Shown here: piece after piece, positions 6,223 to 29,338 of the stretch
How the letters are laid out: the number at the start of each line of letters is the position of its first letter
How positions within the stretch are numbered: the first letter of the stretch is position 1
DNA from: a virus
Taxonomy: Duplodnaviria; Caudoviricetes
Virus record (IMG/VR): IMGVR_UViG_3300023170_004399
Location: 1 to 64,000 of that record
DNA length: 64,000 nucleotides
Reading direction: 5' to 3' (one strand)
Translations under genes and position numbers: made by a program
The notes under the pieces: generated by a model
What the model was told of the DNA's origin: nothing
The model's database searches: none
The model's input: only the letters and a program-made list of their open reading frames with translations

Positions 6223-6918
6223 ATGAAACATTTGCGATTATACATACAAAACTTGCTAAGAGAGATGGCAGCACCTAGCACTGATCACTCTGACACTGTT
6301 TATTATCATGGTACACCGATTGAAAAATATGCAAAGTCTATAATGTCAGCTGGCGAGATAAAACCACCCGATCTATCAAATAGGTCAGGTCCGCTTCGAC
6401 CAGTAGATGGTATGGTTTATATAACACCAAGTATTGCGACCGTACAAATGTATGCACTTGGCGGAGATATGGCGGGTCATGGCACATCAAAGTTAGAGGA
6501 AAAGTATGGTAGATACGGATACGTATTTGCAATTGCTGGCAAAGATTTATCTAATATACATCCAGATGAAGATAGCATAGGAGAAATGATATACAATAAA
6601 GAGGTGCCCTGGCTTGACCAAATGGCAAAATATTATTTAGAAGAAGAGCCATACGATGATGAAGGACAAGGTTTGGGTTACTATAGTTTGTATGATGCCT
6701 TAGTTGGCGGTGAATATGATGCTTTTGCGACGGGGGGAAGATATTTAGTAGATGTAATGAGTGATGAAGAAAAATTAAGTTTGATTGATATGGGTGCTGA
6801 CATTGCTCACGAAGGTCCATTGAAACCTATGGCTGTTTATAGACTTGACAGAAGAAAATCAAAATTATTAAAAAGAGATGGCTCTAATTTTTTTGACATA
6901 GCAGAGAAAGTAAAATGA
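6223..6918 (+). CDS. Leader-tagged H-Y-E-type ADP-ribosyltransferase-like protein
   Basis: MKHLRLYIQNLLRE; YYHGT...SIM..GEIKP, VYITPS...MYA, YVFAI, PDED. Confidence 0.6.
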   Translation: MKHLRLYIQNLLREMAAPSTDHSDTVYYHGTPIEKYAKSIMSAGEIKPPDLSNRSGPLRPVDGMVYITPSIATVQMYALGGDMAGHGTSKLEEKYGRYGYVFAIAGKDLSNIHPDEDSIGEMIYNKEVPWLDQMAKYYLEEEPYDDEGQGLGYYSLYDALVGGEYDAFATGGRYLVDVMSDEEKLSLIDMGADIAHEGPLKPMAVYRLDRRKSKLLKRDGSNFFDIAEKVK

Positions 6919-7604
6919 AACAATTAAGAAAGTATATAAGGAACATATTGTTAACAGAAGGGATGTATACACCATCACTAATGAAAGACAAAAACATCCA
7001 TATAGTATTCAAAGTTGGTCCATCTCAGATCTGGCTTCAGGCTCAGAAAAGACCAGCAACAGGAGATCCAAATCCCAGGTTTGGGAACGTTGGGCAGTTA
7101 TATTTGGTTTGGCAAAATGATAACTACTATGGGGAAGGCAACTGTGATAGCGCTTGGTCTGTTGAGGATGCTGGCATTGTTGAATCTGTCTCTGGCTTAG
7201 GTCCACTCTTATATGATCTTGCGATGGAGTTTGCTGGTGAAGATGGGATCATGTCTGATCGGCATATAACATCTTTAAAGGCAAGAAAAGTCTGGTATCA
7301 TTATCTAGGAGCTCGGGATGACGTTGAAGCAATATTGCTTGATTACAGAGATGAACCGTGGATAACACCGAACGATCCTTCTGACGATTGTTCCCAGAGG
7401 CAGTATGATGGATCCAAATCCTCGAACGAAATAGATGAGTTAACTTATGCAAATCACTTTTCAACAAACAAATTTATAAAGAAACCTATGCATACTAACA
7501 CGATAAATGCTTTATACGATATGGGATTGCTTACGTTCAAATTTATCATGAACGGAGAAGCAGTACATGGAGATCGGGTGAGAGCTATGGGGATTGAAGT
7601 ATGA
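6915..7604 (+). CDS. Leader-tagged GNAT-like paralog 4
   Basis: MKQLRKYIRNILLTE; GLGPLLYDLAME...IMSDR..TSLKARKVW; DDC. Confidence 0.65.
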   Translation: MKQLRKYIRNILLTEGMYTPSLMKDKNIHIVFKVGPSQIWLQAQKRPATGDPNPRFGNVGQLYLVWQNDNYYGEGNCDSAWSVEDAGIVESVSGLGPLLYDLAMEFAGEDGIMSDRHITSLKARKVWYHYLGARDDVEAILLDYRDEPWITPNDPSDDCSQRQYDGSKSSNEIDELTYANHFSTNKFIKKPMHTNTINALYDMGLLTFKFIMNGEAVHGDRVRAMGIEV

Positions 7605-8890
7605 ATCATTTACGACAATATATAAGACAAACAATTAATGAAAGCATTAATTTATTAGGTCACGATAAAGCATTAAACACTATTATTGCACATAAAGATA
7701 AACTAGTTTCAGGCGAATCAACAGAAGGCAGAAATACTGTGCATTATTCAACAGCAGAATTTCCATATCGCACACCTCTACTTGAAATCGGCAATTACAT
7801 ACATGCAAGTTTAAAAATAGATAATAAAAATTTAGATGATGCAATAAATGATTTAATATTTGAAATGTTTGAACAGGATTATTTCGAAAATGTTAATCAA
7901 AAAAACCGGTTTAAAGGTAGCACTGTAGAAAAAATAAAAAATGAACGTAACGTGCTTTATGAAAAAAGGGAAAAATTAATCAAAAAAACCAGTGAATTTT
8001 GTGCTGAAAATCGGCGAGATATAGATATGTTTATTGGCTTTCGAATACTAGCTGGTTTTGCAATGCTAGGTGCGGAAGGAAGATTTAAGGCAGATATTGC
8101 TAATAATTTGCCGACAGGCGATGGTATTGAGATGCCAATAATAGATATGAAACTTAAAACTGCCATGTCCAAGAGAGCAAATGCTACTATTATACATGAA
8201 TTTATACATTTTTTACAGTTTGTTGGTTCATATTGGTTGTTACTTGGAAGAATAGTTGTACAACGTTTAAACAAAATTAAGAAAATTGAAATTAGTGATA
8301 GTGCTGCCAGCCTACTTTCAGCTGACAGAAAAGGCGCTTTTTATAAACAAAATCTAGCAGACTACAAAGAAACAATTAAAAAGAACGATATAACGCTTAC
8401 TTATAGTCATCTTTTTGATATTGATAACAAAGATTTTATTTTCGGTGGCGTAAAATTTAAAGATCTTTTGTCAAAACAAAAAAAAATACAGATTAAAAAA
8501 GTTTATCCTACTACAGACTATTTTTTAGAGTCACATGAAGTACAAGCTCACATATACCACACAGCTGTTGAATACGTACAGGATAATTTTGATACAATAC
8601 AAAGCAAATTAGAAAATGAAGATTTTGATCAAGCATTTACTGCAATAGCAAATGATTTAGTCAACATTAACAAAGCTCCTACTGGTATCAAACGTTTCTT
8701 TGATGATATGTTTTCTATGTTTCAAAAATATGATTACAACTGGACCGTTAAAAATTATAATAAAATAGCATCAGAGTTTCCAGATAAAGATAAGTTTAAA
8801 AACATGTTAGTTAAACAATTGTCACGTGCAATTAAAAAAGAATATTTAAGACAAAAGATGAACAAGTTTAAAAATTTGAGAATACCATGA
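7601..8890 (+). CDS. Leader-tagged zincin-like metallopeptidase
   Basis: MNHLRQYIRQTINE; TIIHEFIHFLQ (HExxH) plus distal YFLESHEVQAH. Confidence 0.6.
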   Translation: MNHLRQYIRQTINESINLLGHDKALNTIIAHKDKLVSGESTEGRNTVHYSTAEFPYRTPLLEIGNYIHASLKIDNKNLDDAINDLIFEMFEQDYFENVNQKNRFKGSTVEKIKNERNVLYEKREKLIKKTSEFCAENRRDIDMFIGFRILAGFAMLGAEGRFKADIANNLPTGDGIEMPIIDMKLKTAMSKRANATIIHEFIHFLQFVGSYWLLLGRIVVQRLNKIKKIEISDSAASLLSADRKGAFYKQNLADYKETIKKNDITLTYSHLFDIDNKDFIFGGVKFKDLLSKQKKIQIKKVYPTTDYFLESHEVQAHIYHTAVEYVQDNFDTIQSKLENEDFDQAFTAIANDLVNINKAPTGIKRFFDDMFSMFQKYDYNWTVKNYNKIASEFPDKDKFKNMLVKQLSRAIKKEYLRQKMNKFKNLRIP

Positions 8891-28284: not shown

Positions 28285-28315
28285 CTAGATAATTATATTT
28301 TATCGGAGTTATTGT

Positions 28316-29338
28316 ATGATTAGAGAATTTATCAGAAATGTTATAACAGAGAATATAACTAGTGTCAATCATCAGGACATGATTAACAGGATTAGGGAAT
28401 ATTTTAAAGATATTTTAGTCACAACCGGTTTGCAATTCTCATATTATAATGAGTATGATAAAAAAACTGAAACTTTTAAGATGAAGTACCGTGGTGACAC
28501 TCATATTAACTATACTGGTGTTATCAAGCTAGAATTTATTATAGAACCAATGATTATTGGGGCAATTGAGGATTCAATGCTATTGTCTCCACTTCCGCCT
28601 GGTTACACTAGGAATACAATTAGGTATTTTGAAGATGAAGGATATAAAGAATTTAGTAAAGTTTATGATTCATTTGTTAATGATTTTAGAAAGTGGTGTA
28701 ATGCTAGAGGGTGGCATGTTGTTAACACTGGTCAGACTAGGTTAGAACCAAGTCATTTGATAATGAAGTTTACTATGTTGTTGCAACCATTACCACACAA
28801 AAAAAATCCTAGTTACTTTGCCGGCATTGAGGGCATTCAAGATAAATTAATTGTTCATTATACTGCTGAAGCTAATGAAGCCTCTATTAAATCAAAAGGT
28901 CTTAAGCCTACTGGTGGAAAAGCAAGATATGGTCATGATTTTGGTAAAGGCAGATTATATTTAATGCTTATTGACAAGAAAGATTATAATGATCCTCAGA
29001 AGTTGCAGGAATTTGCATATTTTATCAGTCAAATGTCGGGATTGAGTGCTTCTGGCAAAAAGGCTAATCAGCATAAATGTTTTATTGTTTTTGATCCGGC
29101 TAAGATTGATGCAGATAATTTTGGAATGAATTTTTATATTGATACTGAATTTAGCAAAAATGCAAAGATGGAAGTATATGATTCTCGCAGTGCTCCTTTA
29201 GGTTGGCATGTTTATTATGTTTATACGCCAACACATATTCCTGCAAAATATTATAAAGAAACTATTTATGTAGATGTTATGGGCAAAATAAAAGCTGAGT
29301 CATCTCCGCCGAAGCTGCAGTTCAACTTTAAAAGATAG
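28316..29338 (+). CDS. Leader-tagged protein with C-terminal Tpt1/KptA-like ART domain
   Basis: MIREFIRNVITE; VHYT...SIKSKGLKP, RLYL, YIDTE, HIPAKY. Confidence 0.55.
   Translation: MIREFIRNVITENITSVNHQDMINRIREYFKDILVTTGLQFSYYNEYDKKTETFKMKYRGDTHINYTGVIKLEFIIEPMIIGAIEDSMLLSPLPPGYTRNTIRYFEDEGYKEFSKVYDSFVNDFRKWCNARGWHVVNTGQTRLEPSHLIMKFTMLLQPLPHKKNPSYFAGIEGIQDKLIVHYTAEANEASIKSKGLKPTGGKARYGHDFGKGRLYLMLIDKKDYNDPQKLQEFAYFISQMSGLSASGKKANQHKCFIVFDPAKIDADNFGMNFYIDTEFSKNAKMEVYDSRSAPLGWHVYYVYTPTHIPAKYYKETIYVDVMGKIKAESSPPKLQFNFKR

Follow-up and report, generated by a model that had tools for sequence, protein, structure and literature searches.

The stretch of viral DNA analysed here (the window) covers positions 1 to 64,000 of IMG/VR record IMGVR_UViG_3300023170_004399 and belongs to a metagenomic contig of 269,730 bp that was recovered in many assemblies. 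Three open reading frames (ORFs) on its plus strand, at positions 6223–6918, 11511–12356 and 28316–29338, code for proteins of 231, 281 and 340 amino acids, designated ART-1, ART-2 and ART-3. An earlier note on this DNA had read them as ADP-ribosyltransferases (ARTs) of three different chemistries with a common N-terminal leader. The ORFs, their motifs and their leaders were all found at these positions, and the motifs exceed chance expectation. The case for an ART fold is strong for ART-1, good for ART-3 and probable for ART-2. Pfam, PHROG and NCBIfam contain no meaningful match for any of the three proteins. Sequence searches of the PDB yielded weak KptA matches with the ART-1 profile only (E 0.03) and nothing useful for ART-2 and ART-3.

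ART-1 belongs to an unnamed phage family, for which 118 homologous clusters and 62 viral loci were found, many of the loci on contigs of 150–600 kb. The bacterial genome collection gave no match to this family. The AlphaFold2 (AF2) model of ART-1, computed from 95 sequences, reached a pLDDT of 93 and a pTM of 0.85. It predicts six core strands in the order of ARTs (residues 26–31, 64–68, 98–105, 112–114, 194–197 and 204–209) and a helical insert of approximately 75 residues at 116–189. Among the structural matches listed by VIA, 49 of 50 are known ART folds as judged from the entry titles, with KptA/Tpt1 (Z 7.3), TreX, pertussis toxin, PltA and DarT1 (149 residues aligned) in the lead. The Z scores of the model are middling (up to 7.3, root mean square deviation 2.6 over 85 residues), yet the match list is uniform. 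In the Atlas comparison, a viral DarT/PARP-like cluster was matched with a TM score of 0.58, and the top BFVD matches include proteins of Bacillus phage G (E 3e-4 to 1e-3). Based on the predicted structure, membership of ART-1 in the ART superfamily, with a split beta-sheet ART core, is well supported.

Across the 95 aligned homologs, His29 on strand 1 (YHGT motif, positions 6307–6309, 95/95), Tyr66 on strand 2 (VYIT motif) and Tyr77 (together spanning 6418–6453) as well as the PDED motif at residues 114–117 (6562–6573) are invariant. The two tyrosines are spaced like Tyr896 and Tyr907 in PARP1. The earlier note had proposed an H-Y-E-like pattern, of which the His on strand 1 and the Tyr on strand 2 stand. 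The Glu of strand 5 does not: residues 192–196 hold no conserved Glu in the 95 homologs, and residue 193 at the start of strand 5 (6799–6801), the probable canonical position of the catalytic Glu, is His in 90 of the 95 and Asp in the window. With strands 4 and 5 assigned from the secondary structure, PDED directly follows strand 4 (112–114). Because the acidic motif follows strand 4 and does not supply the Glu of strand 5, ART-1 is not a canonical H-Y-E enzyme.

A homolog of ART-1 is present in the cultured myophage Tunturi_5 as a domain of gp205, which is annotated as an ART. This protein of 853 amino acids (L073, 7551–10112) combines the ART-1 domain with a second His-Tyr ART-like domain with an IQPDE motif and with a GNAT domain; the domains are separated by repeated K/R-T/S-A-A joints, which may be protease sites. 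The top Foldseek match to ART-1, also found by VIA (Z 3.9), is a segment of a pre-ejectosome protein of cyanophage A4 (PDB 9k3a, chain B, residues 1418–1615), a structural resemblance hinting that an ejection protein may contain an ART-like domain.

ART-3 consists of an N-terminal domain (residues ~15–165) and a C-terminal minimal ART domain (~172–325; 28829–29290) with the predicted topology of the Tpt1 C-lobe. The ART domain carries His181 (HYT motif), an SI..GLKP motif, Tyr215 (RLYL motif), Asp276 (conserved) and Glu278 after strand 4, and Val302 on strand 5. Comparison with the Tpt1 C-lobe by hhalign yielded an end-to-end alignment of 91 columns (pairwise E 1.1e-4, probability 29.5). The ESM features of the domain are nearest to PARP/HYD1/Arr clusters (0.92–0.93), and comparison of the Atlas model with PF01885 gave a weak TM score of 0.43. 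Strong purifying selection acts on the domain, with a ratio of non-synonymous to synonymous substitution rates (dN/dS) of 0.064 compared to 0.21 for the N-terminal domain. Two homologs were found, one at 83% and the other a full-length ortholog at 25% identity in G001, a 273-kb IMG/VR phage.

The earlier note had called ART-3 Tpt1/KptA-like. The C-lobe topology and the H-x-T..I...GL.P start indeed resemble the RNA 2'-phosphotransferase Tpt1/KptA (PF01885). However, Tpt1 requires H-H-h, an Arg-His-Arg-Arg catalytic set and a winged-helix N-lobe (PMC8120803). In ART-3, Tyr215, which both homologs retain, sits opposite the second Tpt1 His; the catalytic Arg of the C-lobe is replaced by Lys211 (Asn in the G001 ortholog), and the N-terminal domain, like the protein as a whole, gave no PF01885 match that would correspond to the RNA-binding N-lobe. 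For these three reasons ART-3 is not a member of the Tpt1 family.

Since ART-1 and ART-3 have a His-Tyr core and an Asp after strand 4 in common, their motifs together with those of ART-2 indicate two ART clades or active-site types at this locus, rather than the three chemistries of the earlier note. The layout shared by ART-1 and ART-3 is deduced from motif positions and does not amount to demonstrated homology: comparison of the two profiles was not significant (E 0.06), although one viral Atlas cluster lies near both proteins. Arr, the rifampin ART of the H-Y-D type, has Asp84 in place of the Glu (PMC8120803), and the position of PDED in ART-1 appears to recall this residue. Both window proteins appear to resemble Arr and CC0527/DUF952 in the His-Tyr core without a strand-5 Glu and in the acidic residue after strand 4 (D115 and D276), which stands in a hydrophobic-x-x-Asp context in each; structural matches to this group have Z scores of 5.1–5.5. 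As His-Tyr ARTs, ART-1 and ART-3 would probably use this Asp in the way Arr does. They differ from Arr in that the profile similarity is weak (global hhalign pairs PDED with EDD of Arr at a probability of 1%) and ART-1 contains the 75-residue insert.

The missing strand-5 Glu would also be in line with ART-1 and/or ART-3 acting on nucleic acids or nucleotide signals, be it by ADP-ribosylation of DNA or RNA, RNA-end phosphate chemistry, or the processing of immune messengers or of NAD. The nearest solved folds of ART-1 (KptA/Tpt1, TreX, DarT1 and Scabin) and its nearest Atlas clusters (DarT/DUF4433/DUF3990-like) point in this direction, and members of the H-H-h clade work on RNA and small molecules (PMC9503650). 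However, the fold neighbours at Z 6–7 tie with protein-modifying toxins, the Arg-His-Arg-Arg set and the N-lobe of Tpt1 are absent, and a general NADase would be expected to hurt a lytic phage that needs the NAD of its host. We regard this explanation as less likely than protein modification, yet as a real alternative. More doubtful still is the narrower proposal that the ART-1 family constitutes an undescribed catalytic subtype, delivered with the virion, whose substrate is not protein but a nucleotide messenger or the DNA or RNA of the host. It would draw on the invariant PDED after strand 4, the strand-5 His, the large helical insert and the occurrence in many large phages. If it were true, ART-1 would give T4-like jumbo phages an injected weapon for nucleic-acid ADP-ribosylation.

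ART-2 is an orphan of 281 amino acids with motifs in R-S-E order: YRG (R92), SWS (145–147) and EKE (220–222). A GTG start codon upstream at 11439 would extend it to 305 amino acids; the leader begins at the ATG at 11511. The ordered R..S..E pattern was found in none of 20,000 shuffles of ART-2 and in 5 of 3,623 local phage ORFs, although the significance of both counts is overstated, as the pattern was adjusted after viewing ART-2. The other four ORFs with the pattern are R-S-E ARTs, including T4 ModB. A profile of phage R-S-E ARTs and T4 ModA/ModB, built without ART-2, scores it at E 0.06 (3,623 ORFs), and the score of ART-2 with a later iteration was reached by 4 of 5,000 shuffles. R92, S145 and E222 align with the R, S and E columns of these proteins, and hhalign yielded an E value of 0.002 on the S-W-S strand (strand 2). 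Language-model features (ESM/Atlas) of ART-2 are DRAT-like (0.91), with a low overlap (142/256).

The three motifs of ART-2 could also be coincidental and the protein not an ART. No homologs were detected among 5.8 billion or 1.8 billion sequences, and searches of protein databases, cultured phages, four related phages and viral or metagenome contigs recovered no relatives. The single-sequence AF2 model was unusable (pLDDT 34) and the DRAT profile gave no signal (1.2 bits), which together with the low Atlas overlap would fit a chance resemblance. In contrast, the order and spacing of the motifs and their flanking hydrophobic strands fit an ART, the pattern is locally confined to R-S-E ARTs, and the profile scores exceed those of about 99.9% of the shuffles. 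Coincidence is unlikely, and from its sequence ART-2 is probably an R-S-E ART. The order R, S-x-S, E-x-E claimed in the earlier note is present; the clade assignment draws on these motifs and on weak profile scores, and the most likely identity is a mono-ART of the Alt/Mod clade with specificity for protein arginines. ART-2 shares the ordered motifs with the R-S-E mono-ARTs ModA and ModB of T4 and is recovered by the same pattern as ModB. It differs from them in the lack of significant pairwise homology, in a longer loop between strands 1 and 2 and in its packaging-type leader. An R-S-E protein of G001 was considered as an ortholog of ART-2 and ruled out. Related large phages (L013, L018, L019, L038 and L068/L129) carry tandem R-S-E-type ART paralogs, several of which have T4-type MKTFKQF..E leaders.

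At least one of the three proteins, especially the window copy of ART-1, might be a weak or dead ART-fold protein that acts as a binder or decoy (for NAD or ADP-ribose derivatives, or for proteins) and forms optional head cargo. ART-1 deviates from its family at four near-invariant sites (Y73T, A74V, K173R and H193D; Y73 is found in 92 and A74 in 88 of the 95 homologs). In its closest relatives the changes arose stepwise, first from H193 to D/N and then from Y73/A74 to T/V. ART-3 lacks an acidic residue on strand 5, and a sister phage has another gene in place of ART-2. Opposed to these losses are the intact H29, Y66, Y77 and PDED of ART-1, the complete R, S-x-S, E-x-E set of ART-2 and the strong purifying selection on the ART-3 domain. 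The dN/dS of ART-1 (0.17–0.23) is similar to that of the neighbouring genes, indicating that the gene is not decaying. Loss of function is accordingly a quite improbable account.

All three proteins begin with a basic amphipathic leader: MKHLRLYIQNLLRE in ART-1 (6223–6264), MLRQYIEKIINE in ART-2 (11511–11546) and MIREFIRNVITE in ART-3 (28316–28351). They end in L-R-E, I-N-E and I-T-E, respectively. Cleavage by gp21 in T4 follows L/I-x-E, the N-terminal 10 residues of IPIII are enough to direct packaging, and Alt is packaged and processed before it is ejected (PMC9026906). A hydrophobic-x-Glu motif stands immediately before the domain in 100 of 108 ART-1 homologs, of which 48 have a leader of the T4 form (F..F..E) and 26 the form of the window phage. 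Homologs exchange the leader for a T4-like MKTFKQF..E, often near-identical to the T4 capsid-targeting sequence (CTS). As the address varies by lineage while the enzyme domain stays, the leader fits a packaging signal. An equivalent leader is present on the G001 ortholog of ART-3, and in G001 the same leader is found on a gene located two ORFs downstream of the prohead protease. In Tunturi_5 gp205, repeated K-T-A-A joints replace the leader.

Many orthologs with 40–66% identity connect G001 with the window, to which it is syntenic. G001 has genes for a gp23-type capsid protein and for a prohead protease of the T4 gp21 type (E 1e-27), on account of which we assign the window phage to the T4-like jumbo (myo)phages, probably of coastal origin. 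Close relatives are marine, and the single RNA run found was from a salt marsh. Expression in this salt-marsh metatranscriptome was not counted, as it consisted of scattered low-depth contigs (one across 6734–6940) and DNA carry-over is possible. A host assignment based on a YeaH match (57%, metagenome-assembled genome of Halobacteriovorax) was rejected, since the match may be a binned phage contig.

Based on the analogy with T4, head packaging of the three proteins is likely. The leader would direct each protein into the prohead, where a gp21-type protease, detected in the relative, would cleave after hydrophobic-x-Glu, and the mature protein would exit with the DNA. NAD+ would be bound in an ART fold, which is predicted by structure for ART-1, by profile for ART-3 and by motifs for ART-2, and, as infection starts, ADP-ribose would be transferred to targets of the host. 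This chain as a whole, Alt-like injected mono-ARTs as head cargo of a T4-like jumbo myophage, is the explanation that we favour with moderate confidence. Several results weigh against it. The VIA Z scores of ART-1 stay under 8 and Foldseek found no PDB match at E ≤ 0.001; the window copy carries the substitutions listed above; ART-2 is without homologs, a usable model or a DRAT signal; the protease was detected in G001, which serves as a proxy for the window's own genome; and no conserved late promoter was found. The sequence TATAAATA, 33 nt before 28316, was considered as a T4 late promoter and rejected, as it reads TACAAATA in the sister phage and is no commoner than chance.

The earlier note had invoked T4 Alt, ModA and ModB as precedents. 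This holds for Alt, which is packaged, whereas ModA and ModB are synthesized in the infected cell and are not (PMC9503650, PMC9026906). The system agrees with that of T4 Alt, the CTS proteins IPI–III and gp21 in a propeptide ending in L/I-x-E, in ART cargo, in gp21- and gp23-type proteins of a relative and in the near-CTS starts of many ART-1 homologs. It is distinguished by a more basic leader, LR.YI..(L/I).E, on about 30 genes and by the fact that two of the three window proteins are His-Tyr rather than R-S-E enzymes. A number of about 30 tagged ORFs in a single array, far above the handful of T4, would suit a leader that is a common N-terminal module with another role, on ARTs that are not packaged and act during infection like ModA and ModB. 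The Mod-like R-S-E protein of G001 bears the leader too, and no late promoter was shown. On the other hand, the leader terminates in the motif cut by gp21, appears as the T4 CTS form among T4-like relatives, stands on the G001 head-operon gene and gives way to K-T-A-A joints in gp205. We consider action without packaging improbable and retain delivery from the head as the preferred explanation.

The three genes are part of an array of about 30 leader-tagged, co-oriented and mutually unrelated ORFs on the plus strand (838–29338), among them GNAT-like, HExxH peptidase-like and further ART-like candidates. The strict leader pattern matches 18 of 38 ORFs between 0.8 and 29 kb compared to one of the 28 ORFs farther downstream (Fisher p 7e-5); about 13 additional ORFs of the array were found by eye to carry an MKISK..L..IIREE variant. 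In a sister phage (L193, 9646–10290), an unrelated tagged protein of 214 amino acids, itself with an H-x-T..I...GL pattern, fills the slot of ART-2 and the next two genes, and in L192 an extra gene for 135 amino acids immediately precedes ART-1. On these grounds the array is interpreted as fast-turnover, swappable cassettes, with a cargo set that differs among sister phages.

Further observations concern other genes of the window. The leader-tagged ORF at 2988–4160 contains a His, a Ser/Thr and an E..DNW motif in ART-like order and was retrieved by four G001 paralogs (E 8e-6). Leader-tagged relatives are found at L011 11375–12915, 16363–17085 and 18115–18948, and this family is a possible candidate for a further ART-fold family. 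The ORF at 13466–14929 has only the E..DNW motif in common with it. The leader-tagged ORF at 4170–5177 (KP.GLFY ... FAGIEF ... YDI..GCVW) recalls ART-PolyVal-like phage proteins by eye, a likeness for which no database support was found. GNAT-like paralogs with a GP..YD motif are located at 17–841, 838–1953, 1953–2987, 6915–7604, 8887–9732 and 10053–10757, and many paralogs occur in G001. The leader-tagged ORF at 7601–8890 is HExxH zincin-like (HEFIH ... HE..AH), and its sister-phage ortholog is just 43% identical. The skew shifts strongly in a gap of 486 nt at 14930–15415, which also holds a His-codon-like repeat (near 15360). Adjoining ART-3 upstream, at 27427–28284, is an untagged ORF of 285 amino acids with a weak DUF4258 match (E 7e-5); the adjacency is kept in the sister phage. 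Two very long ORFs (1652 and ~1580 amino acids) with similar N-termini lie at 32592–42276 and are conserved in the sister phage; a Pfam search yielded no match for them.

ARTs are present in more than 40% of jumbo phages, fall into three clades and are found in packaging contexts in about 44% of cases; Bacillus phage G has at least 10 of them (PMC9503650). Phage polyvalent proteins usually contain ART, GNAT and zincin domains (PMC5512222). The window matches multi-ART jumbo phages and polyvalent proteins such as those of phage G and Tunturi_5 gp205 in combining several ART clades with GNATs and zincin peptidases in putative head cargo; phage G proteins structurally resemble ART-1, and the gp205 domain is homologous to it. 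In contrast to polyvalent proteins, the domains of the window each have a leader-tagged gene of their own within a swappable array and belong to families outside Pfam, PHROG and NCBIfam. Several ART clades per jumbo phage and Alt-like packaging are already published; the novelty is limited to the families themselves, chiefly that of ART-1.

Taken together, the analysis would extend the head-loaded ARTs of myophages by three uncatalogued ART-type families, one of them widespread and the other two rare. ART-1 offers an easy assay target, being small and well modelled, with a clear invariant pocket and a homolog in the cultured phage Tunturi_5. For this group of phages, the comparison points to an address peptide that changes from lineage to lineage in front of a retained enzyme domain, and to an exchange of cargo slots between sister phages.

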